Shown one piece after another: positions 7,943 to 24,517 of a stretch of 64,000 nucleotides of DNA. Positions within the stretch are counted from its first letter, which is position 1. Every line of letters starts with the position of its first letter. Made by a program: the position numbers and the translations under genes. The DNA lies in contig DASPGH010000095.1 of the NCBI GenBank assembly GCA_035620735.1, positions 3,484 to 67,483 on the forward strand. Reading direction: 5' to 3'. Source of the DNA: Acidimicrobiia bacterium (GTDB lineage Bacteria > Actinomycetota > Acidimicrobiia > Spongiisociales > ZC4RG35). The notes beneath the pieces were generated by a model. The model ran no database searches. It was not told where the DNA came from and worked only from the letters and a program-made list of their open reading frames with translations.

Positions 7943-8827
7943 TCAGGAGAGATCGAGAACCGCTCGTAGCGTGGTCTCCCCGATTCGCTCCATCGACGGG
8001 TTGTCCGCCGAGCTGGCGACATAGGCGAGACCGAGCGAGATCGCCCACCCCCTGGCCCGAAGACGCAGCGAATCCCCCGACGGGCCGTAGGCCTCCCAAA
8101 ACCCATCCTGAAAGTCTGACGCCAGGCTCCAGGCGACGGCCAGATCGGTTGCAGGATCCCCCGCCGTGATGTCACCAAAGTCGATAACACCCGCCAGGAC
8201 TCGGTCGGCGACGAGGAGGTTCTGGGGGTGAAGATCGCCGTGGATCCAAACCGGAGATCCCTCGAATAGATCTGCGGATAGCGCTTCGGCCCACAACCGG
8301 GCGAGACGTCCTCGGGCTCGCCGGTCGGCGACGGCATCGAGTCGTTGCCGGGTCGCCGCGTCCCGGTCGGTGAGGGGCCCACCGCGATACGGGTTGGCCG
8401 GCGCCTCGGACGGAGCCACCTGATGGAGTTGCTTCAGGAAATCGCCGATCTGCTCCGAGCAACGGGCAACGTCGAAGGCGGTCACCTCACCGGCGGGCTG
8501 CCCGGGAATGAAGGGGGTGATGAGCCAGCGCCATGGATAGCGGTCCATGGGCTCACCGACGAACTCGGGCGTGGGGACGGGAAGGGGCAGATCGGGAGCG
8601 AGCTCTGGAAGCCATCTCGCCTCATTCTCGATCAACCCGGCTGCGATGGCTCGTCTCGGCAAACGGGCGACGTGGTCGTCGCCGATGCGAAATGAGAAGT
8701 TGTCCCAGCCAAAAGCCAAGGGGCGTATCTCCAACCGGGCTAGATCGGGTCGCTGGGCATCGAGAAGGACGCGAACGAGCCCGACGTCGACCTCGATGTC
8801 GGCAGCCGGCATCTTCTGACGCGACAC
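7943..8827 (-). CDS. aminoglycoside/choline-kinase-type phosphotransferase (APH family)
   Basis: Brenner/APH catalytic motifs IHGDLHPQNLLV and VIDFGDITAGDPATDLA. Confidence 0.8.
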   Translation of the reverse strand: MSRQKMPAADIEVDVGLVRVLLDAQRPDLARLEIRPLAFGWDNFSFRIGDDHVARLPRRAIAAGLIENEARWLPELAPDLPLPVPTPEFVGEPMDRYPWRWLITPFIPGQPAGEVTAFDVARCSEQIGDFLKQLHQVAPSEAPANPYRGGPLTDRDAATRQRLDAVADRRARGRLARLWAEALSADLFEGSPVWIHGDLHPQNLLVADRVLAGVIDFGDITAGDPATDLAVAWSLASDFQDGFWEAYGPSGDSLRLRARGWAISLGLAYVASSADNPSMERIGETTLRAVLDLS

Positions 8828-14788: not shown

Positions 14789-16135
14789 ATGCATGATGAC
14801 CTCAGAGCCGCGGTGGCGGCTGACATGCCCCGTCTGAAAGACCTCTTGTCCACGTTGATCCGGATGAAGTCGGTCAGCGCCGACGGCTACGACCCCGCCG
14901 CGGTGCGAGAAGTAGCCGAGACCATCGTCGCGATGCTCGGCCAAGCCGGCTTCTCCAATGCCCAACTTCTGGAGTCGTCGAACGGGCACCCCACGGTATT
15001 CGCCGAGATCCCTCCACCCGAGGGTGCACCGACGGTCCTTCTCTACGCACACTACGACGTGCAGCCACCCGGGCCGATCGAGGAGTGGGAATCGGGACCA
15101 TTCGAGCCTCTCGAAAAGAACGGTCGCATCTACGGGCGGGGAGCCAGTGACGACAAGGCGGGCATCGTCATGCACCTGGGAGCGATCGCCGCACATGGCG
15201 GCGAGCCTCCTGTAGGCGTGCAGCTGTTTCTGGAGGGTGAGGAAGAGGCAGGTTCGATCGGTCTTCCCGAGATCCTCGAGAAACACTCCGATCTGCTCGA
15301 CCCCGATGTGATCGTCATCGGCGACGGGGGCAACTGGGATGAGGGAACACCGGCGTACATCTCGTCCCTGCGTGGGGTCGTGGGGCTCAAGCTCGAGTTG
15401 AGGACGCTGAGATCTGCGGTGCACTCGGGCCAGTACGGCGGTGTCGTGCCCGACGCACTCATGGCTCTCGCCAGACTCCTGGCAACCCTCCACGACGACA
15501 AAGGGAACGTCGCCATAGCCGGGCTGGTCTCAGGGGCGCTGGAAGACGTCCCGGAAGTGTCCGAGCAAAGAGCACGCACCGAGACCGGAGCGGTCGACGG
15601 TCTCGAATTGATCGGCGAGGGATCCATCCCTTCCCGGCTCTGGTCACGACCGGCGGTGTCTGTCCTCGCCATCGATGCCCCCTCGACCGCAGAGGCCATC
15701 AATCAGCTCGTGCCTGTGGCCCGGGCCAAGGTGAGCATGCGCATTCCGCCCGGACAGGACGCCGATGCCGCTCTTCAGATCCTCAAGAACCATCTGATGG
15801 CAAACGTGCCCTGGGGTGCTGAGCTCTCTTTCTTCTACGAGGAGAAGGGCGAGGCCACGGTCCTCGGCTCTGACAACTTCGCCGTCGACATCTGGCGCGA
15901 GGCCTTCCACGAGGCTTTCGGCACTGAGGCGGTCGAGATGGGTGCCGGCGGCTCGATCCCGTTCATCGCCACCTTCAGCGAGATGTTCCCCGACGCCCCG
16001 ATCCTTGTGGTGGGAGCGGCCGACCCGTCGAGCGCCTTCCACGCACCGAACGAGAGCCAGAGCATCGCCGATCTGGAGAAGGCGACCCTCACGGAGGCGA
16101 TCGCGCTGAGACTGCTTGCCGAGCGAGACGTCTGA
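14789..16135 (+). CDS. M20-family dipeptidase/metallohydrolase
   Basis: 448 aa with M20 motifs (LLYAHYDVQPP, GRGASDDKAG, LEGEEEAGS). Confidence 0.85.
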   Translation: MHDDLRAAVAADMPRLKDLLSTLIRMKSVSADGYDPAAVREVAETIVAMLGQAGFSNAQLLESSNGHPTVFAEIPPPEGAPTVLLYAHYDVQPPGPIEEWESGPFEPLEKNGRIYGRGASDDKAGIVMHLGAIAAHGGEPPVGVQLFLEGEEEAGSIGLPEILEKHSDLLDPDVIVIGDGGNWDEGTPAYISSLRGVVGLKLELRTLRSAVHSGQYGGVVPDALMALARLLATLHDDKGNVAIAGLVSGALEDVPEVSEQRARTETGAVDGLELIGEGSIPSRLWSRPAVSVLAIDAPSTAEAINQLVPVARAKVSMRIPPGQDADAALQILKNHLMANVPWGAELSFFYEEKGEATVLGSDNFAVDIWREAFHEAFGTEAVEMGAGGSIPFIATFSEMFPDAPILVVGAADPSSAFHAPNESQSIADLEKATLTEAIALRLLAERDV

Positions 16136-16181
16136 GCCGGCCGTTGTCTGTGCACCATGTCTCGGAAACCGCTACGTGATG

Positions 16182-16670
16182 CTATAGCAACGCTTGTCTG
16201 GAGCCCTTGAAGCCCAGCTGGCGCCACGCTTCGTAAACGACGATGGCGGCGGAGTTGGAGAGGTTGATCGAGCGAACGCCGGAGATCATGGGCAGACGCA
16301 GTCGGCGTGTGATCCAGGGCATCTGTCTCACCTCGTCGGGCAAGCCGACCGATTCAGGGCCGAAAAGGAAGGCATCACCTTCGCTATAGCTCTCTTCGGT
16401 GTAGAGCCGCTCCCCGTCGACAGTGAGGGCGAATACCCGCGCCGGCGCGGTCGTCATCAACCAGCTCTCGAGATCGGGATGCACCGTCACCGCCGCCTTG
16501 TCCCGGTAGTCCAGGCCCGCCCGGCGCAGCTTGGCGTCTTCCATCTCGAACCCGAGAGGCTCGATCAGATGGAGCCGGCAACCCGTTACCGCGGCCAGAC
16601 GCATGGCATTGCCGGTGTTGGGGGGTATCTCAGGGGTGAAGAAGACCATATCGAACATCGGGTCGGTCAA
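16182..16670 (-). CDS. trmL: tRNA (cytidine/uridine-2'-O-)-methyltransferase TrmL (SpoU/TrmH class)
   Basis: [29 protein letters not shown] and the C-terminal [18 protein letters not shown] are typical TrmL motifs. The start overlaps the nucS stop by 4 nt. Confidence 0.9.
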
Positions 16671-17335
16671 CGAAGATCGAACAGACGGAGCTCGGTGTCC
16701 TCCGCCTCTCGGAGACCGTCGTAGTCGACCTCGATCGCCACGACGCCTCTCGACTCGGCGAGCACTCTCGCCTGGGGCGTTATCGACTGGGCGGAGAGGA
16801 TGCCCCGCACCGGGGCTAGCCGGGGGTCGTGGTTCAGCCTCTCGATGTAGCGGACCAGTTGCTCCACCCCGTCGATGTCCCCCCGCCGCTTCACCTCGAT
16901 GGCCACGGTCGAGCCGTTGCGGTCGGCGCAGAGGAGATCGACGGGCCCGATATCGGTCGGATACTCACGACGGATCAGGCTGAGACCCTCCTCGAGGATG
17001 CTGGGTGTTGCGGCGAGAATCTCCTGCAAGTGGGTCTCGACCCCATCCTTGATCAACCCGGGATCGTCTCCGAGTTCGTGGGTGACGTCCTCGAGAACCT
17101 CATGAATCCAGATGGTGAGCCGCTCTGTCTTCGAGTTGGTCACCTCCCAGCGATCCTCGTGAACCTCCACGATGTTGGGGGCGATCATCCAATTCAAAGG
17201 CTTAGAAGCGTTGCCATCGGAGTGGATGGCGAGAGTCCCATCAGCCTTTACCATGATCAGCCGAGTGGCCTCGGGGAGATGCGCCGTGAGGCGACCCGAG
17301 TAATCGACGGTGCAGCGAGCGATGACCAGTCTCAT
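16667..17335 (-). CDS. nucS: endonuclease NucS (EndoMS, non-canonical mismatch repair)
   Basis: 222 aa. [41 protein letters not shown]... and the C-terminal PD-(D/E)xK region ([20 protein letters not shown]) match NucS. Confidence 0.93.
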
Positions 17336-17551
17336 ATGGCTTGAGTCGGCGAGGGTAACTCACTGCCAACCCTCCGTCCGAGCGTGCAGCTGCCACCTTA
17401 AGACAGGCCACACGTTCTTCTGGCAATTCGTGAGTAACACCTAGCTGCCCAGGTAGCGCATGTTGCCGGTTATCGCGCAAGTGATCCGGTCATCTTCGCT
17501 GTCTGGCGACGCCGCGTCATGCGCTGTCTGAATCGCTATCCCGGTGGTGAA

Positions 17552-18166
17552 TCAGACGCTCGAGGTTGTCGAGTTGTTCCGTCTCCGAGAAGCCGCCAGG
17601 GCCATCCAACGAGATGCCAAGGGGACGACCAGAGGTGGAATGAAGTAGAGAATTGCCGGCGCATAAGAGTCAATAAAGCGTGAAAGATCTGCTCCGACTT
17701 GCACCATGCCGTATAGAACCCCAAAGGTCACGGCCCAGACGGGAATGGAAAGGAGGGCTGTGAGGAACGGTGCGGAGCGTTTGAACAGCGCAAGCGCCGC
17801 ACCGATACCGATGGCAGCACCCACTGGAATTCCCACAAGCAGACCGTAAAAGAGCGCCGCTCCAAGACGATTGAACCCACTGAGATCTGTGGAACTGAGC
17901 AACATCCACGGTGCAACGTACAAGCCGACGAATCCACCCAACCAAGCTCCGACCAACGCCAACAGGTAGCCCGACTTGCGGGTTCCCCGGTATGCCGTTC
18001 GAATGACACGTTCGACCCCTCCACGGTCGTGTGAGCTTCTCTGATTGCGCCGCACCAACAAATGTTGGCCGCGACCCCCGCTCGAATCTACTGACCAGAG
18101 ACGGACGGTCCCGATCACCTGAAATGGCGCGTGGTCGCTCGGACAAGAACCGTCCGGGATCGGCAC
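17552..18166 (-). CDS. hypothetical multi-pass membrane protein (start uncertain)
   Basis: At least 4 hydrophobic helices (YLLALVGAWLGGFVGLYVAPW, LGAALFYGLLVGIPVGAAIGIGAALAL, FLTALLSIPVWAVTFGVLYGMV, ILYFIPPLVVPL). The DNA is visibly lower in GC than its surroundings. An internal GTG/TTG start near 18060 is equally possible. Confidence 0.45.
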   Translation of the reverse strand: MPIPDGSCPSDHAPFQVIGTVRLWSVDSSGGRGQHLLVRRNQRSSHDRGGVERVIRTAYRGTRKSGYLLALVGAWLGGFVGLYVAPWMLLSSTDLSGFNRLGAALFYGLLVGIPVGAAIGIGAALALFKRSAPFLTALLSIPVWAVTFGVLYGMVQVGADLSRFIDSYAPAILYFIPPLVVPLASRWMALAASRRRNNSTTSSV

Positions 18167-18199
18167 TTTGGCGTGCGCACCTCGTCGTATTGTTTATCG

Positions 18200-18397
18200 A
18201 TGAGTTCTTCGACCACTGCTCGACCGGACGACTTTGAGCCAGGTGACAAAGTGCGACCTAAATCGGGTGAGTTCGTCGAGTACGTCGGTGAGGTCGTCGA
18301 GGTGCGCCGGAAAATTGTCATCGTGGACTACGAAGTCTTTGGGCGTGGAGTGCCGGTCGAACACCATCCGGGCGACCTCGTCAAAGTGGTCAGCTAG
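18200..18397 (+). CDS. stand-alone KOW-like (NusG C-terminal-domain-like) small protein, 65 aa
   Basis: The ATG at 18200 gives MSSSTTARPDDFEPGDKVRPKSGEFVEYVGEVVEVRRKIVIVDYEVFGRGVPVEHHPGDLVKVVS. The pattern GD.V....G.F....G.V.EV......V.V..FGR..PVE......V resembles the NusG KOW domain. Confidence 0.4.
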   Translation: MSSSTTARPDDFEPGDKVRPKSGEFVEYVGEVVEVRRKIVIVDYEVFGRGVPVEHHPGDLVKVVS

Positions 18398-19940
18398 CGC
18401 AGATCACACTGTTCTTGAGCGATATGGCTCTCTTCGCCAATCGGCCCGGTATCGGCATGCCTGAAGAGTGGGTTCCTGTCAACTGGGTGTTTCCCCTGGT
18501 CGGGTTCAGGCTCGAGGCGCGGCTAGCTGCGACCGGGTGCGGTCGTGGTGGGTATCTGTGTTTGTTGACGGTTGCGGTCGCCGGCACCTGGTACCGCTAG
18601 TGCGGTGTGCAGCACTCTGGGGTGTGCTTGGACATGCCTCCGCCACGCCCTCGTTGGGAGGTGTGGCATGGTGCTTTTCGGCCTAGGTCAGAGCTGGGCT
18701 CAATCACATGAGTCGGCCACGCCAACGTATGGGGGCCATGCCGATACCGAGCTCGCAGTCATCTGACCGCGTCCGCCAGTCACGTGGCCTCGGGCGGAGC
18801 GAGGCTCCGGATCTCACCGTCACGTAGCCCGTAGTAGACCAGCGTGAGGAGTTTGCGGGCCGCAGCCACTCTCCCTTTGTTGCGGCCTCGTCGTTCAGAA
18901 ACTCTCTGGTAGTGGGCTCTGATGTGGTCGTCGCCGTGGTTCTTGGAGATGGCTTCGATCGCCGCCCACCGGACCAGGGGTGGGCCTTGTTTGGTGATCG
19001 ACCCTCGATGGACCGTGGTGTCCGACTCCCGGTGTCTCGGCGTCAGCCCGGCCCAGGAGCAGACGGCTTTGGCTGAGCGGAACCGTTCGACGTCGCCAAG
19101 CTCAGCACAGAAGATGGCAGCGAGCACCGGACCCACTCCGTTGAGCTGTTGGATCACCTGATACCCCTCATGCCCTTCGAATTCGTCGGCGATGCGGGAG
19201 TCGAGTCTGGTGATCTCGTTGTCGTAGGTCTTGATCAACCGTCGCAGCGACCGGACCCTGGTCTCGTAGGCGTCGGCCATCTCCGTCTCGTCCAACCAGG
19301 CGTTGCCACCGGGACCCCACAGGTGGTTGATCGGCGGTCGTAGTCCTTCTTTGCCCAACACGGCATGCACCTGAGCTTTCAGCCCCGCTCGCAGCTGGGA
19401 CAGTTTGCGGCGGTAGCGGACCAGCTCCCTCTGATACCGGATCCCTTCAGGAGCTATCCAGCTTTCGGGCAGTCGCCCCATCCGCAACAGGTCGGCCAAC
19501 AGTCGAGCGTCGATGCGGTCGTTCTTGACCCTCCGGTTCTCAAACCCCTTGATCCCAAGAGGATGCGCCAAATCCACGTTGCCTCCCGCTTCGGCGATCA
19601 CATCCGCAGCCCAATACCACCCCCACGTCGCCTCCAACACCACCTCGGGAGCCGGACCCGCCTCCTCGATCTCCAACCCAAGAGTCAATGGGTCGTTGTC
19701 AATGCGCTTGGTCCACAGTTCGGTGCCATCCGAATCCACCACCACGATCACCGACCGGCGACGGTGCAGATCCACACCCACGTAACGTGTCATCCGGGGC
19801 CTCCTTGTCTCGACGAATGACAAGGCCCGAGTCTCGTCTCGGGTCAAAGAGCAGGGAGGTCCCCGCTCTTCATGGCATCACATATGTTCCTGGGCGCCTC
19901 GTAGGCTGGACTCGTGTCTGGTCTGTTCCCTACTCCTGAT
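18398..19940 (-). mobile_element. IS110-family insertion sequence (IS1111-like layout); ends not defined
   Basis: A DEDD-type transposase gene has only ~120-150 nt of upstream flank and ~380 nt of non-coding downstream flank. The unit exactly fills the gap between the KOW ORF stop (18397) and the glyoxalase start (19941). A candidate imperfect inverted repeat lies at 18457..18478 and 19852..19878 (shared ATGCC / TGAAGAG / GGG / CCTG blocks). Confidence 0.6.
18780..19793 (-). CDS. IS110-family transposase/recombinase
   Basis: The N-terminal RuvC-like DEDD domain starts MTRYVGVDLHRRRSVIVVVD. The C-terminal IS116/IS110/IS902 domain includes LQQLNGVGPVLAAIFCAELGDVERF.SAKAVCSWAGLTPRHRESD. The start was refined to ATG 19793. 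Confidence 0.9.
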   Translation of the reverse strand: MTRYVGVDLHRRRSVIVVVDSDGTELWTKRIDNDPLTLGLEIEEAGPAPEVVLEATWGWYWAADVIAEAGGNVDLAHPLGIKGFENRRVKNDRIDARLLADLLRMGRLPESWIAPEGIRYQRELVRYRRKLSQLRAGLKAQVHAVLGKEGLRPPINHLWGPGGNAWLDETEMADAYETRVRSLRRLIKTYDNEITRLDSRIADEFEGHEGYQVIQQLNGVGPVLAAIFCAELGDVERFRSAKAVCSWAGLTPRHRESDTTVHRGSITKQGPPLVRWAAIEAISKNHGDDHIRAHYQRVSERRGRNKGRVAAARKLLTLVYYGLRDGEIRSLAPPEAT

Positions 19941-20315
19941 ATGGCCCTGACTCACATCCTGGTCGTCTCAGATGTTCCTGCTTCGAACCGTTGGTACCAA
20001 GATGTTCTGGGTGCCGAGCCGTATCGCGAATACGGAACCTCTGCCGTTCTCTCCTTCAATGGAGCGTGGTTTCTCCTAGTTGAAGGGGGCGATCCGACAC
20101 CGGACAAACCCGAAGTCGAATTCCTGCCACCCGATGCTCGGAAGGTCACTCATTCGTTCACGGTCCGCGTCCAGGACTGTCAGGCCAGCTACGACACCCT
20201 CAGAGGGCGGGGTGCTGACTTTCTGGCTCCTCCCTACGACTGGGGTGGTGAGATCCGCTGCTTCTTCGCCGACCCCGACGGGCACCTTTGGGAGATCAGC
20301 CAACTCGTCGCCTGA
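19941..20315 (+). CDS. VOC/glyoxalase-family protein
   Basis: MALTHILVVSDVPASNRWYQDVLGAE...FADPDGHLWEI is a typical vicinal-oxygen-chelate fold signature. ATG 19941 is preferred over GTG 19914. Confidence 0.75.
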   Translation: MALTHILVVSDVPASNRWYQDVLGAEPYREYGTSAVLSFNGAWFLLVEGGDPTPDKPEVEFLPPDARKVTHSFTVRVQDCQASYDTLRGRGADFLAPPYDWGGEIRCFFADPDGHLWEISQLVA

Positions 20316-20359
20316 CAGGCACACATAACGGCACCCATGCGTGCTATTCACGAGTCACC

Positions 20360-20635
20360 TTAGATCAGGCTGACGCCGAATCCGAGGCCCATCAGGCCGA
20401 GGCCGAGAGCAAAACGTAACTCGGCATCAGGACGGCGTTCTCCGGTTCGGAGGCCACTCAGCATCGCATGCGCTGAAGGGATGTAGTCACCTCCGTGGAG
20501 AACGCGGGTCCTCGCGGGCGTGTCGCCGACAGTTACGTGCCAGACGGCTCGGTGTCGGCGGATCGGAGAAACCAGCACCGCTGAGCCACTGCCCAAAAGA
20601 GCCAGACCCAGCAACAGGTGGTTCAGGTCGTTCAC
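20360..20635 (-). CDS. small hypothetical membrane protein
   Basis: 91-aa ORF with N- and C-terminal hydrophobic helices (LLLGLALLGSGSAVLV; FALGLGLMGLGFGVSLI). I recognise no family. Confidence 0.35.
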   Translation of the reverse strand: MNDLNHLLLGLALLGSGSAVLVSPIRRHRAVWHVTVGDTPARTRVLHGGDYIPSAHAMLSGLRTGERRPDAELRFALGLGLMGLGFGVSLI

Positions 20636-20775
20636 CCCATCAACCTACGCGGCGGAAGTTCGCCCAGATAACGCCCCTCCCGCCAATCCGAGCAGATCGG
20701 CACATATCGCGTGAGCTGAGCAGCGCTCGGGATTCAACGATTTCGGATCACAGATTCTTTAGTTCACTTCGATCG

Positions 20776-21291
20776 TCAGCCTGTCCGGCCGTTCGCCCGA
20801 GCCCGTTCGGCCAGACCCGACAGCATTGGTCTCGTGGTGGCCCAATCGACAAAGTCTCCGAAGGCGACGATCAATGAACGACGCCACCCTTCCGACCGGA
20901 TTGCACCCCGAAATCGCAGGTGGACTTCGGTCGACTGTGACCCGGTGGTCGTAAGGATGATGGCCCAGGTGAATCGAGTGCCAAATCTCTCTGTCACATA
21001 CACGATGTGCTGCGTCGGATGCACCGATACGACCTCTAGGTAGTCGTTGCGGCCGCCGTAGTCGGGGACACGTTCCCCTACAGTCAGACTCTGGTACTCG
21101 GAGCAGATCGTTCGGAGGGCGCGCATCCGCTGTGGTAGCCAGCGCTCGAGTTTCCACGGCAGATACCAGCCGGCCCGATTCTTTCCCAACTGGACAAGCC
21201 ACGGCCAGACATGGTCGACGTGAGTGTCGATGACCGCCTTCCGATCGTAGACCATCGGGACGTCAGGGAGGATTTCGTCACCTGGGAACAT
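20776..21291 (-). CDS. SRPBCC-superfamily (polyketide cyclase/dehydrase-like) protein
   Basis: 171 aa. The pattern I.T.VDHVWPWLVQLG..RAGWY and its size are consistent with SRPBCC ligand-binding proteins. Confidence 0.6.
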   Translation of the reverse strand: MFPGDEILPDVPMVYDRKAVIDTHVDHVWPWLVQLGKNRAGWYLPWKLERWLPQRMRALRTICSEYQSLTVGERVPDYGGRNDYLEVVSVHPTQHIVYVTERFGTRFTWAIILTTTGSQSTEVHLRFRGAIRSEGWRRSLIVAFGDFVDWATTRPMLSGLAERARANGRTG

Positions 21292-21300
21292 CGCCGCAGA

Positions 21301-21438
21301 GAGTATGAGCTTGACGCCGCTCTACCTGAGAGGTGCGACGCAAATAACTCGCCGAACGAGGCACGCGCCGAAGCCGATCACACCACGACGAGTGAGATCA
21401 TCCGGGAAGCCTTGCGCCGCTTCCTCGACGTGGCGTAG
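21301..21438 (+). pseudogene. remnant of a ribbon-helix-helix (CopG/VapB-type) antitoxin-like gene
   Basis: The in-frame peptide ...EYELDAALPERCDANNSPNEARAEADHTTTSEIIREALRRFLDVA* has the SE(L/I)IREALRR(Y/F)L helix typical of RHH proteins. It has no plausible start that does not overlap the SRPBCC gene, and no toxin gene follows. Confidence 0.3.
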
Positions 21439-21603
21439 CACCCGCGGCCACCAGCGCAGAACAACCGATCTCGACCGATAACCCTCGCGTCGCCGACCCG
21501 CCCGAGATCGGCACTTCCAGGGTCAGGTCTCCGGGCGTGAACCACGACCGATCAGGTCACCAATGCCTCAAATCGGATCGGTGCTTGATGAGAGGTCGCT
21601 CTA

Positions 21604-21750
21604 TCAGTTCAGCGGTTTGGAGGCGCTGCCATCGGAGTGAATCGCCGGGGTCCCGTCGGCCTTGACCATGATGAGGCGGGTTGCTTCAGGCAGGTGTGCG
21701 GTCAACCGTCCCACGTAGTCCACTGTGAAGCGTGCGATCATCAGCCTCAT
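21604..21750 (-). pseudogene. nucS: nucS 5' fragment (48 codons then TGA)
   Basis: The encoded [48 protein letters not shown] is 43/48 identical to residues 1-48 of the intact NucS at 16667..17335. By my hand alignment about 105/144 nt are identical, with differences mainly in third positions. Its ATG overlaps the TGA of the upstream MFS gene (ATGA). Confidence 0.85.
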
Positions 21751-22940
21751 AGCTCGGCCTCCCTCGAGTCGGCGACAGTACTTCCGGCGGGGACCTTGTA
21801 GGCAAGAAGGCCAGCAATTGTCAGCAGCCCAGCCGATGCCAGCCACCCGGGTGCATAGGTCCCCAGAGCGTCCACCGAATAGCCCATTATCGGAGGGCCG
21901 ATGGCCAGACCGAGCAGAAAACCAAAGAGCACCAGGCCCGTCCCCTTGCCCACCAAACCATGCGGTGAAAAATCCATCACGGCCAGCATGCCGACTGCGT
22001 TCCAGGCCACCGCTCCACCCCCGAGCAGCAGCGCGGCGGGAATCATCACCCAACCGGCGACCACATCGATGCTCGCCAGCCAGAGCAGAAGAGCGGTGCC
22101 AGTTGTCATCCTCGAGAGGATGCGCAGCGTGCGGCCATGACCCATCGACCTCTCGGAGAGACGTGGCCAGTAGAGACGGGCCACGATGCCGGCGAGGCCC
22201 ACTATCGAGATCAGCCATCCGGCGGCTGACTCCGACCAACCCATGTCCTCGTTGGCGAATAGCGGGATGAACCCGATCATGGCCTGGCTGGCCAGCCCGG
22301 AGACGAAGCCGTAGAGGGCGATCCAGCGCACAGGTGTGGGTGTCCGACCGGTCACCCGCCCCTCGGCCCGCTCGGCGTGCGTCTTCGGATCGCGATGGCC
22401 CATCATGGCGATCAGCCCCGAGATCGGCATCGTGAGGAAGATGAGGAGCGCGACACGCCACGACCACCAGCCCGCGAACAGGGGAAGGAAAGTCCCACCC
22501 AGAAACGTCCCTATCTGAACGCCGGACTGCTTGATACCGGTTATCACCCCGCGCTCACCGGGAGCGGTGTTGTCGACGATCAGGGCGTTGGTCGAAGGGT
22601 TGCCCCAACCGTTGGGAAAGCCGGCGAGGATCGTGGCACCGACGAGCAACCCGTAGGTGGGGCTCAGCGCCATCGCGGTCAGAGTCACTCCCCCGCCGAT
22701 CAACGTGCCGACCACCGATCTGACCGCACCGAGACGATCGGTCAGACGACCGAAGAGGGGGGAAGCCAGAGCCCCGATCAGACCCGAGGCGGTCACCAGA
22801 AACCCGACCTGGGCTCGGCTGATGTCGAACTCGTCGATCAGTTGGGCGGCGAGCACACTGGCCACGATGATGGGGAAAGTGGAGGTGGCCATCGCAGCGG
22901 CCGTGACCGCGCCCAGCCCCGCACGAGAGAACGACCGCAT
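21747..22940 (-). CDS. MFS transporter
   Basis: About 12 TM helices with an MFS loop motif ([11 protein letters not shown]). The start was trimmed to ATG 22940 ([12 protein letters not shown]). Confidence 0.85.
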
Positions 22941-22965
22941 CACTCGCGAAGGTAGTAGCGAACCG

Positions 22966-23385
22966 TCAGGTGGTCGCCGGGTCCCTCGTTGGGCGGGAGA
23001 ACACGAACCAGATGGCGTAGATGCCCACGGCAGCAAGCACCAGTCTCACCCAGAGCAGATCCGTGAGGAAGATGCCGGACACGAGGAGCGACGCCGTGAT
23101 GGCGACGGCGGCGATCCACTTCATGCGCATGGTCAGTCCGTGGTCGCGATAGCCCCTGATGATCCTGCCGAAGTAAGGGTGGTTGACCATCCAGCCGTAC
23201 ATGCGATCGGACGACATCGAGAAGAAGAACGCCGCCAGCAAAACCAGGTCGAAAGTGGGAATCCCGGGAAGCCAGCTGAAGGCCAGCAAGGCCAGACTGA
23301 TCAGGCCGAGAACGAAGTACAGGGCCCGCACGATCGGGCTGCGAGCTTTGCGGGGCGCGGTCGTCTCGACGGACTGGGCCATCAC
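22966..23385 (-). CDS. YbaN-family (DUF454) inner-membrane protein
   Basis: 139 aa. LGLISLALLAFSWLPGIPTFDLVLLAAFFFSMSSDRMYGWMVNHPYFG..I matches the YbaN pattern. Confidence 0.7.
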   Translation of the reverse strand: MMAQSVETTAPRKARSPIVRALYFVLGLISLALLAFSWLPGIPTFDLVLLAAFFFSMSSDRMYGWMVNHPYFGRIIRGYRDHGLTMRMKWIAAVAITASLLVSGIFLTDLLWVRLVLAAVGIYAIWFVFSRPTRDPATT

Positions 23386-23488
23386 GTTGGAAAGCTATCT
23401 ACCGTGGTTCCCGACGGCGAGTCGGCAAACGGGAGCGACTACCTTCGCGACCAGATAGCAACCTGCAACAGTCGAAGGGGAGTACAGC

Positions 23489-24517
23489 GTGCCCATCGCC
23501 ACGCCCGAGAAATACAGAGAGATGCTCGACGCGGCAAGGTCCGGTCGATATGCCCTGCCCGCCATCAACAGTACGTCGTCGTCCACCATCCTCGCCGCCC
23601 TCGAGGGATTCACCGAGGCAGGGTCGGACGGCATCATCCAGTTCTCATACGGCGCCGGAGAGTTCGCCTCCGGCCAGTCGAACCAGGACATGGCTCTCGG
23701 CGCCCGCGCCCTGGCCGAATTCGCCCATGTCGTGGCCGATCAATATCCAGTGAATATCGCCCTCCACACCGACCACTGCCCGCCCGACCGGGTCGACGGC
23801 TTCCTCAGACCGCTGCTGAAGGTGAGCGAACAGCGAGTGGCCGATGGCGACGACCCGCTGTTTCAGAGTCACATGCTCGACGCCTCGAGCCTCCCGATGG
23901 AGGAGAATCTCGGTCTCGCGGACGAACTTCTGGACAGATGTGCCGCGCTGGACATCGTCCTCGAGCTGGAGATTGGCATCGTCGGTGGTGTCGAGGACGC
24001 CAGCGACCATTCCGAGGTCGATAGGTCGAAGCTATACACGTCTCCGGATGACATGGTGAGGGTCTCCGAAGTGCTGGGCACGTTCGATCGAGGCCGATAT
24101 CTGTTGGCCGCGGTCTTTGGCAACGTGCATGGCGTCTACAAGCCCGGCTCGGTGCAACTCGACCCGACGATCCTTCGCTTCGGGCAGGAGGCGGTGGCGA
24201 ATCGGTTCGGCGAGGAAGCACGCCACTATCTGGTCTTTCACGGGGGTAGCGGCTCGACACTCGATGAAATCCACGAGACCCTGGACTATGGGGTCGTCAA
24301 GATGAATGTCGACACGGACTGCCAATACGCCTACACCCGTCCCATAGTCGACCACATGTTCTCGAACTACGACGGGGTCCTCAAGGTCGACGGCGAGGTT
24401 GGGGACAAAAAGCTCTACGACCCCCGCTCCTACATGAAGGCGGCGGAGAAAGGGATGGCGGCGCGTGTCGTCGAGGCGTGCCAGATGTTGAAGTCGGACG
24501 GAAATAGCATCCGCTGA
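23489..24517 (+). CDS. fba: class II fructose-bisphosphate aldolase
   Basis: MPIATPEKYREMLDAA....YALPAIN, HTDHC and FHGGSGS motifs; 342 aa. Confidence 0.93.
   Translation: MPIATPEKYREMLDAARSGRYALPAINSTSSSTILAALEGFTEAGSDGIIQFSYGAGEFASGQSNQDMALGARALAEFAHVVADQYPVNIALHTDHCPPDRVDGFLRPLLKVSEQRVADGDDPLFQSHMLDASSLPMEENLGLADELLDRCAALDIVLELEIGIVGGVEDASDHSEVDRSKLYTSPDDMVRVSEVLGTFDRGRYLLAAVFGNVHGVYKPGSVQLDPTILRFGQEAVANRFGEEARHYLVFHGGSGSTLDEIHETLDYGVVKMNVDTDCQYAYTRPIVDHMFSNYDGVLKVDGEVGDKKLYDPRSYMKAAEKGMAARVVEACQMLKSDGNSIR

Follow-up and report, generated by a model that had tools for sequence, protein, structure and literature searches.

Target-restoring integration at the 5' end of nucS in uncultured Acidimicrobiia, possibly by a novel recombination mechanism

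The nucS locus

In Actinobacteria, mismatch repair relies on the nuclease NucS/EndoMS, whose loss leads to hypermutation and to raised homeologous recombination. The nucS locus described here lies in a 64-kb stretch of DNA from an Acidimicrobiia bacterium (assembly GCA_035620735.1, contig DASPGH010000095.1), hereafter the window, in which an intact nucS gene is accompanied by a separate nucS 5' stub. Read along the minus strand, on which the genes of the locus lie unless another strand is given, the order is a DUF454 gene, an MFS transporter gene, the stub, 4.27 kb of other DNA, full-length nucS and a trmL-like gene (Table 1); M20 and M50 peptidase genes are also among the neighbours. The insertion has stranded the promoter-proximal 49 codons of the host gene in front of a non-coding sequence that we call the tail, and the 5' end carried by the insert is fused to the remaining host nucS, so that NucS is kept at full length and its coupling to the MFS gene is lost. 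The protein encoded by the rebuilt gene contains both NucS_N and NucS_C at full length, with nearly the whole of each Pfam profile covered, as expected of NucS/EndoMS. The trmL-like gene marks the downstream edge of the native locus.

The first 48 codons of nucS are present twice, at 17192-17335 and at 21607-21750, and a repeat search returned 17179-17336 against 21594-21751, at 72% identity, as the largest direct repeat within 15.5-23.5 kb. The two copies agree at 105 of 144 nucleotides (nt) and at 43 of 48 residues, and the 39 nucleotide differences are split 4/4/31 over codon positions 1/2/3 (binomial p = 4e-9 against 1/3). This excess of third-position differences indicates that both copies diverged under selection as functional genes, which argues against a recent local duplication. 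The TGA stop codon of the MFS gene overlaps the ATG of the stub as ATGA, and a non-coding gap of 216 nt (17336-17551) precedes the intact gene. The doubled codons, the third-position excess, the overlap and the gap had been pointed out in a reading made from the letters of the stretch alone (the sequence-only reading), and alignment confirmed the doubled codons with their third-position excess, as the inspection of the locus did the overlap and the gap. The same reading had considered that the stub might derive from a second full-length paralog; no third nucS copy was found within the 64-kb window. The window also contains no tRNA gene, and a tRNA target was rejected.

Table 1. Features of the nucS locus and its insert in the window
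Feature	Position	Strand	Details
DUF454 gene	22966-23385	-	
Host MFS transporter gene	21747..23036	-	Open reading frame; Pfam MFS_1, E = 4e-55
nucS 5' stub	21604..21750	-	48 codons + TGA, then TAG
Tail (conserved, non-coding)	21493..21603	-	Starts with in-frame TAG; from alignments among lineages
Cargo: truncated ribbon-helix-helix (antitoxin-like) remnant	21211..21438	+	Pfam RHH_1, E = 0.0013, C-terminal half of profile only
Cargo: 171-aa ORF, no known family	20776..21291	-	No Pfam match at E <= 1
Cargo: 91-aa ORF, no known family	20360..20635	-	
Cargo: glyoxalase/VOC-superfamily gene	19914..20315	+	Pfam Glyoxalase, E = 3e-13
IS110-family insertion sequence nested in cargo	18446..19881	-	Pfam DEDD_Tnp_IS110 and Transposase_20; ends from the L096 copy
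Cargo: 88-aa ORF	18131..18397	+	Pfam KOW, E = 0.42, below cut-off
Cargo: 204-aa predicted membrane ORF, no known family	17552..18166	-	GC3 0.62
Up block (conserved, element-borne, upstream of rebuilt nucS)	17336..17533	-	
Surrogate first 49 codons of rebuilt nucS, element-derived	17189..17335	-	39/144 nt differ from stub
Intact (rebuilt) nucS, 222 aa	16667..17335	-	Pfam NucS_N, E = 2e-24; NucS_C, E = 2e-36
Host trmL-like SpoU methylase gene, coupled to nucS	16182..16670	-	Pfam SpoU_methylase; synteny conserved in relatives
aa, amino acids; ORF, open reading frame; GC3, G+C content at third codon positions.

Empty and occupied sites

All sequences used for comparison, cited here by labels such as L001, are metagenome assemblies, and several of the contigs end at or near the repeat. 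The nearest genomes belong to uncultured Acidimicrobiia with NucS about 80% identical. An uninterrupted MFS-nucS-trmL locus, which the sequence-only reading had suggested looking for in the closest genomes, was found, for example in L111 and L001. The order DUF454-MFS-nucS-trmL-M20-M50-acyl-CoA dehydrogenase, with nucS abutting the MFS gene, is shared by L001, L003, L005, L008 and L010; L004 shares this gene order but has a short gap ahead of nucS, and no stub is present in any of these six. The closest empty-site relative, L111 (about 80% nucleotide identity over 12 kb), has an uninterrupted locus whose two flanks are both collinear with the window. On the left the alignment runs up to position 21605 of the window and on the right it begins at 17334, with an overlap on nt 1-145 of the L111 nucS gene, to which the stub and the intact 5' end each align. 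Judged from these alignments, the window is an L111-type locus to which 17336-21603 has been added, with nt 1-147 of nucS doubled.

A finer comparison is offered by L096 (occupied) and L111-L115 (empty), whose flanks are 97-100% identical and which are thus considered one species or very close relatives. The stub region of L096 is the same as the empty allele from the 3' end of the MFS gene through ...AAACCGCTCAACTGG (CAACTGG); there the L096 stub turns to the tail and the empty allele continues with ATGATCGCT. Upstream of its start codon the intact L096 copy has no similarity to the empty allele; about 12 differences follow in its first 54 nt, after which it is identical to the gene end bar two single-nucleotide polymorphisms. 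A tree built on codons 2-46 places the L096 stub together with the intact gene of L111 at 100% bootstrap. Together, the comparison and the tree show the stub to be the 5' end that the host gene first had, and the rebuilt gene to begin with foreign sequence. The sequence-only reading had advanced both an insertion in nucS near codon 48 that brings its own 5' end and upstream region, and the host origin of the stub; both are borne out by the collinearity with L111, the L096/L111-L115 junctions, the MFS overlap in six lineages and the N-terminal alleles described below.

The point at which foreign sequence gives way to host sequence within the rebuilt gene follows nt 53 in L096 and nt 59-70 in L109, and the foreign sequence reaches nt 128-143 in L006, L094 and the window. 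A 13-nt run that is identical in the two window copies (17212-17224 and 21627-21639; nt 111-123 of nucS) corresponds to the conserved I-H-S-D-G codons. It had been proposed earlier as a crossover core, a role that the comparison contradicts: the left junction is fixed at AAYTGG/ (the slash marking the junction), at codon 49, in all 11 occupied lineages, and the right-hand switch varies from nt 54 to beyond nt 143.

Recurrence in Acidimicrobiia

Further cases were collected by DNA pattern scans and by a protein search with the 49-residue stub, which yielded 49 short proteins with NucS_N only. Two short NucS_N proteins were excluded from the stub family: P0012 (L118) is a frameshifted full-length gene, and P0021 (L107) looks like a broken gene. 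The junction AAYTGG/TAGA followed by the tail is shared by 11 Acidimicrobiia lineages, namely the window with L095, L096, L092/L093, L094, L006, L085, L090 (partial), L097, L098-L106 (nine samples), L108 and L109. In six of the 11, the window included, the order is MFS gene, stub, cargo and rebuilt nucS. Five inserts are complete and measure 4.27 kb (window), 3.27 kb (L096), 2.9 kb (L006), 1.36 kb (L109) and 0.97 kb (L094). L006 is a metagenome-assembled chromosome of 2.6 Mb in a single contig, with a 49-codon stub, 2.9 kb of other cargo and an intact nucS. The contigs of L085, L092 and L116 end at this locus, where the duplicated 147 nt appears to break short-read assemblies.

The cargo is unrelated between lineages. 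In L006 it comprises two membrane proteins, a large unannotated ORF (perhaps cupin-like, as a guess) and a PadR regulator, and in L094 one membrane ORF that is possibly frameshifted. A protein common to the inserts was sought by comparing 10 cargo sets all against all and was rejected, the only sharing being IS110 (window and L096) and an ORF of 27% identity, the 171-aa ORF of the window, which has its homologue in the L109 insert. Apart from the nested IS110 element, no element-encoded recombinase was found by Pfam among the cargo ORFs tested from the window and four other loci; the precomputed Pfam matches of called genes on the retrieved contigs contained no recombinase, and a tyrosine integrase tblastn against the 64-kb window gave nothing. 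The absence of a tyrosine or serine integrase from the insert, reported from sequence alone, is therefore upheld by both Pfam and tblastn. With neither a shared protein nor a recombinase, the only backbone common to the family is non-coding DNA plus the nucS fragment.

Two further loci resemble the family in part. Contig L090 (519-656, 5793-5867, 6869-7044, 7387-8500) retains nucS codons 32-49 with the tail and, about 5 kb on, a piece of the up block. Between these pieces lie membrane genes and a two-component system, and no nucS locus surrounds them. Close by are some 14 tandem iteron-like repeats of 12 nt, a gene for a tyrosine integrase and a tRNA-Ser. Since the integrase is next to the tRNA-Ser and the iteron-like repeats, it looks like a separate element; L090 could be a cassette captured by another island. 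In L117 (4482-4915), which belongs to another clade of Acidimicrobiia, an unrelated sequence interrupts nucS one codon further on (...AACTGGATG/TAGGCCTCGAAC), 281 nt before the contig ends; this interruption may represent a second type of insertion at that position.

The left junction and the tail

All stubs end at codon 48/49 with the junction AAYTGG/TAGAGC, after which non-coding sequence is shared in the 11 lineages as AAYTGG/TAGAGCGACCTCTCATCAAGCACCGATCCGTTTTGAGGCA. Conservation extends over the first ~45 nt of the tail (21559-21603) in 11 lineages and, in eight of them, over the following ~40 nt as well, and a distal motif, GAAGTGCCGATCTCGG, lies at 21502-21517. The tail is confined to stub-adjacent positions and is absent from stub-less relatives; there is at most one per locus, and in four of four occupied species-representative genomes it occurs once, always at nucS.

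Several identities for the tail were examined and rejected. An Rfam search of 16000-23500 returned nothing beyond a chance snoRNA match at E = 0.68, hence no RNA family for the tail, and RNAalifold on eight tails gave -4.3 kcal/mol with essentially no covariation; together these results speak against a known or structured RNA. A coding remnant or a diverged continuation of nucS was rejected because the differences among tails have no period-3 pattern and because, on reading by eye, there is no nucS similarity past codon 49. Nor is the tail or its distal motif a genome-wide repeat, the motif being present twice in the window, which is the chance level, and the tail once per genome. Scans of the up block and tail with promoter and terminator consensus sequences gave nothing above the shuffled background. 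At the junction, CGCTCAACTGGTAGAGCG (e.g. L096 286-303) forms a perfect 5-bp inverted repeat with an 8-nt spacer in L092 and L096. As a recombinase core this inverted repeat (CGCTC-N8-GAGCG) was discarded, since it is perfect in only two of 11 lineages and imperfect in nine, with no covariation, and may be due to chance.

The up block and the surrogate 5' end

An up block of about 70-200 nt, homologous to that of the window, precedes every intact copy for which upstream DNA is available (window, L006, L094, L096, L109 and L116). It also precedes the stubs of L006 and L085, and it is absent from empty-site relatives. In the window it holds the motif AACCGGCAACATGCGCTA (17454-17471) and the box GTTACCCTCGCC (17348-17359), which is a candidate -10 element; a promoter role for the up block is suggested. 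A related observation is that a box GGTTACCCTCGCC, with TACCCT, is found 12-25 nt upstream of the nucS start in most relatives (window 17348-17359 and 21772-21783; L001-L010), sometimes inside the 3' coding end of the MFS gene, and may be the -10 element of a near-leaderless nucS transcript. In L006, a third, orphan up-block motif (AACCGGCATTCTGCGCTA...) is located mid-cargo at 8361-8420 with no nucS fragment after it, which suggests that the 2.9-kb insert consists of two fused cassettes.

Codons 2-46 of the rebuilt window gene are closest to copies from otherwise more distant genomes, namely the L085 stub (88.9%) and the up-block-linked intact copies of L096 (87.4%) and L006 (85.9%), and codons 50-220 group with L111 and L116 at 93% bootstrap. 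Separate phylogenies had been suggested as a check on the sequence-only reading, and their outcome agrees with it as far as these affinities go, although the 5'/3' discontinuity within the window gene rests on 135 nt and is supportive, not decisive. A nucleotide phylogeny was likewise set aside as a means of placing the two window copies, as 135 nt resolves too little and only the L096/L111 pairing is decisive. As to the N-terminal alleles, M4/A13 goes with MFS-coupled intact genes in the window clade and V4/S13 with the up block; both the L096 stub (M4/A13) and the window stub (M4/V13) belong to the MFS-coupled type. Third positions account for 31 of 39 stub-versus-intact differences in the window, 21 of 22 in L006 and 22 of 28 in L094. 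This excess and the allele types together argue for a foreign origin of the surrogate 5' end.

The stranded stub

The stub is the host gene's original 5' end, stranded and decaying. Its 4-nt overlap with the MFS gene is kept in six lineages (window, L092, L096, L098, L108 and L109), as is that of intact nucS in empty-site relatives. When the window stub was set against the N-terminus that 108 related intact NucS proteins have in common, four residues of the stub (F8, V13, P35 and S42) were seen in none of these proteins, and other stubs contain none to three residues unseen in intact NucS. The stubs of L094 and L098 are frameshifted, the stop codon is lost in P0009, and only nucS codons 32-49 are kept in L090. 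Unseen residues, frameshifts and lost stops suggest that the stub peptide is without strong selection. The contig L095, 99.6% identical to the window and representing the same population in another data set, has the same stub.

A cassette family and its alternatives

In the orientation of nucS, each insert consists of a tail that provides a stop codon, lineage-specific cargo, and the up block with the first 49 nucS codons. We consider it probable that 17336-21603 is not the single decayed element envisaged in the sequence-only reading, and that it is one of a family of small (about 1-4.3 kb) cassettes without a recombinase, which enter nucS after codon 49 and leave it by Campbell-type recombination. 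A circle of the composition up block-nucS(1-49)-tail-cargo would recombine once with the 5' end of chromosomal nucS, and entry and exit would both proceed by Campbell-type recombination between the cassette's own nucS fragment and the chromosomal gene. The recurrence of this arrangement, with cargo unrelated each time and an integrase always lacking, suggests an insertion system that has not yet been described. As to what drives it, host homologous recombination is the leading candidate within this explanation, if short of an even chance; it accords with the absence of a recombinase from every member, with homology of at least 147 nt of coding sequence plus about 25 nt upstream, and with a foreign-to-host switch point that differs between lineages. 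Somewhat less weight is given to a site-specific recombinase whose gene would lie elsewhere and which would act at AAYTGG or beside it; in its favour are the left junction, which is base-invariant in 11 lineages with an in-frame stop codon there, and a tail and up block conserved far above neutral DNA at such divergence. The smallest share is left to other mechanisms. The perfect 94-nt repeat of L096 fits a single cycle in which stub and intact copy recombined to release the cassette and the cassette then entered a naive cell of the same species, and fits gene conversion equally.

A number of observations weigh against a mobile cassette. Among viral contigs, plasmids, phages and species-representative genomes there was neither an excised circle nor a free attP form, nor any autonomous relative; viral contigs were scanned twice by pattern and the whole module was compared by BLAST with plasmids and phages, all without a free or viral form, and terminal overlaps indicative of circular contigs were absent among the retrieved contigs. 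Repeats of 72-85% identity are a poor substrate for RecA, more so in a NucS-proficient cell. The invariant left junction and the conserved tail and up block are both left unexplained by homologous recombination alone, and the perfect 94-nt repeat of L096 is not predicted by a site-specific mechanism. The stubs of L006 and L085 have their own up block with no older stub or tail upstream, from which it follows that a simple model of successive insertions is incomplete, and the call that L096 and L111-L115 belong to one species rests on about 600 nt.

The main rival is a vertical history, which we regard as improbable yet deserving of attention: one ancient insertion, inherited vertically, in which the cargo turned over by insertion, deletion or flank-mediated strain exchange and empty sites arose by precise deletion between the repeats. 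The identical left junction and tail in 11 lineages are most simply explained by a single origin, and no recombinase is present. Tail and up block have diverged about as much as host genes (75-91% identity), each species-representative genome has exactly one tail, always at nucS, and deletion within the perfect 94-nt repeat of L096 would restore exactly the empty L111 allele. Such a history is at odds, however, with the state of the stubs, for an old non-functional stub should be heavily degraded and most stubs differ almost only synonymously, and the non-coding tail is far better conserved than is expected of neutral DNA. The distribution is also awkward for it: the window's nearest relatives by nucS and flanks (L111-L113 and L004) are empty and more distant ones (L006 and L094) are occupied, the surrogate 5' ends resemble copies from otherwise more distant genomes more closely than the remainder of the gene does, and in L090 a fragment of the module flanks cargo outside nucS. 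That the IS110-family DEDD recombinase (18780-19793) would be the integrase of the whole 4.3-kb island, directed by a nucS-targeting guide ("bridge") RNA, seems very improbable. It is the only recombinase in the insert and an 85%-identical copy sits in a second cassette, that of L096, but the two copies are homologous only between 18446 and 19881, unrelated DNA lying beyond these ends, the complete inserts of L006, L094 and L109 lack IS110, and Rfam gave no RNA family there. That the nucS 5' end was duplicated locally in tandem and then decayed, or that the pattern is an assembly artefact, is effectively refuted: the copies are indeed direct repeats 4.4 kb apart, but their 31 third-position differences out of 39 speak for divergence under selection, and the same architecture recurs in independent assemblies that include the 2.6-Mb L006 chromosome and L095.

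Relation to known systems

Elements that restore the gene they enter are known. The dusA-specific elements (e.g. IMEVchUSA3) provide a new promoter and a new N-terminus of 35 residues, 61% identical, and the target stays functional; the same target-restoring replacement of the 5' end is stated for SXT at prfC (PMC8409611). The nucS inserts resemble the dusA elements and the SXT/R391 integrative and conjugative elements (ICEs) at prfC in that they lie in the 5' coding region of a housekeeping gene and supply a replacement 5' end with its upstream region. They differ in that the dusA and prfC elements are 20-100 kb in size and carry their own tyrosine integrase and directionality factor by the attachment (att) site, whereas the nucS inserts span 1-4.3 kb and have no shared protein. 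Like cis-mobilizable elements (CIMEs), they present cargo between direct repeats of the target (nucS nt 1-147) without an integrase of their own, so that mobility would only be possible in trans. CIMEs, however, are derived from and dependent on an ICE or an integrative and mobilizable element with the same att, and the viral, plasmid, phage and genome collections yielded no autonomous relative bearing a tail or an up block.

With integron cassettes they share very small units, down to one gene, with unrelated cargo, a common non-coding module and a single chromosomal site. In contrast to integron cassettes, no intI/attI platform is nearby and RNAalifold indicated no attC-like conserved hairpin; moreover, the nucS module includes a functional gene fragment, and with at most one tail per locus there is no array. 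The closest likeness in layout is to the Campbell single crossover of a suicide vector bearing a promoter and a 5' gene fragment, which leaves a truncated copy, a complete copy and the vector between them. That insertion-duplication is a laboratory construct, unlike the natural nucS cassettes, and to our knowledge no natural element family built on single-crossover insertion-duplication has been described. The literature searched contained nothing relevant on nucS as an attachment or island-integration site.

The 5' end of nucS appears to be used repeatedly and with precision as an entry point for accessory genes in a class that is widespread and uncultured. It is conceivable, and we put this forward tentatively, that the inserts represent a new class of non-autonomous chromosomal gene cassettes whose shared backbone is only a ~250-450 bp module (up block, nucS codons 1-49, stop codon and tail). 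They would enter and leave the best-conserved stretch of nucS, a non-canonical mismatch-repair gene, with no enzyme of their own, via host homologous recombination on a "portable homology arm" or via a host recombinase not yet tied to mobile DNA; insertion could re-wire nucS expression, and the stub peptide may affect NucS. Preservation of the target by a surrogate 5' end, as in the nucS cassettes, has so far been documented for large integrase-bearing elements (dusA, prfC), and a recombinase-free or host-enzyme mechanism, if true, would widen the known routes by which bacteria gain gene cassettes. The target polices homeologous recombination and mutation rate, so that gene gain would, if the explanation is true, be tied to a transient change in genome stability. 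In practice, the stub followed by the tail is an easy marker for finding such islets.

Cargo of the window and the nested IS110 element

The cargo ORFs of the window have GC3 values of 0.62-0.71, compared with 0.76-0.87 for flanking core genes, in keeping with the lower GC that the sequence-only reading had seen in the membrane ORFs. Of the gene assignments made from sequence alone, the IS110 transposase and the glyoxalase gene were corroborated by Pfam. The ribbon-helix-helix remnant is supported by a match to RHH_1 that extends over the C-terminal half of the profile only, at E = 0.0013. Neither the KOW assignment, for which the match falls below the cut-off, nor an SRPBCC gene, the ORF at that place being the 171-aa ORF without a Pfam match, could be sustained.

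The IS110-family insertion sequence (IS) is 1.44 kb long and occurs in a single copy in the window. Its transposase starts with an ATG at 19793 and stops at 18780, with a short stretch on the 5' side and a non-coding 3' end of ~330 nt beyond the stop, and has an N-terminal DEDD (RuvC-like) domain and a C-terminal Transposase_20 domain (Pfam E = 2e-18 and 2e-19). A copy of 85% identity is present in L096 at 977-2407, the flanking DNA being unrelated on both sides, and the abrupt end of homology at 19881 and 18446 identifies a discrete IS with defined ends. IS110 is missing from the complete inserts of three other lineages, and the element is most readily regarded as a later, independent invader of the cargo and not as the integrase of the island.

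Some smaller observations concern this element. The right end of the IS (...GGCATGCCGATACCGG) resembles the motif GAAGTGCCGATCTCGG, of which the only two copies in the window lie in the distal tail (21502-21517) and at the start of the 204-aa ORF (18154-18169); in L096 the related IS adjoins a similar motif. The motif may be a target of IS110. The long 3' non-coding end could encode a guide RNA, and a GTGCCGAT-type motif is a candidate counterpart of putative guide loops within these ~330 nt.

Several cassettes seem to contain toxin-antitoxin-like genes (L092 10250-10911, L108 6717-7806 and window 21211-21438). In L092, a Pfam-supported ribbon-helix-helix gene stands beside a putative PemK/MazF-like ORF, and in L108 a putative antitoxin-like ORF is paired with a putative PIN-like ORF. 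The full ribbon-helix-helix gene of L092 and the truncated one of the window both directly adjoin the tail.

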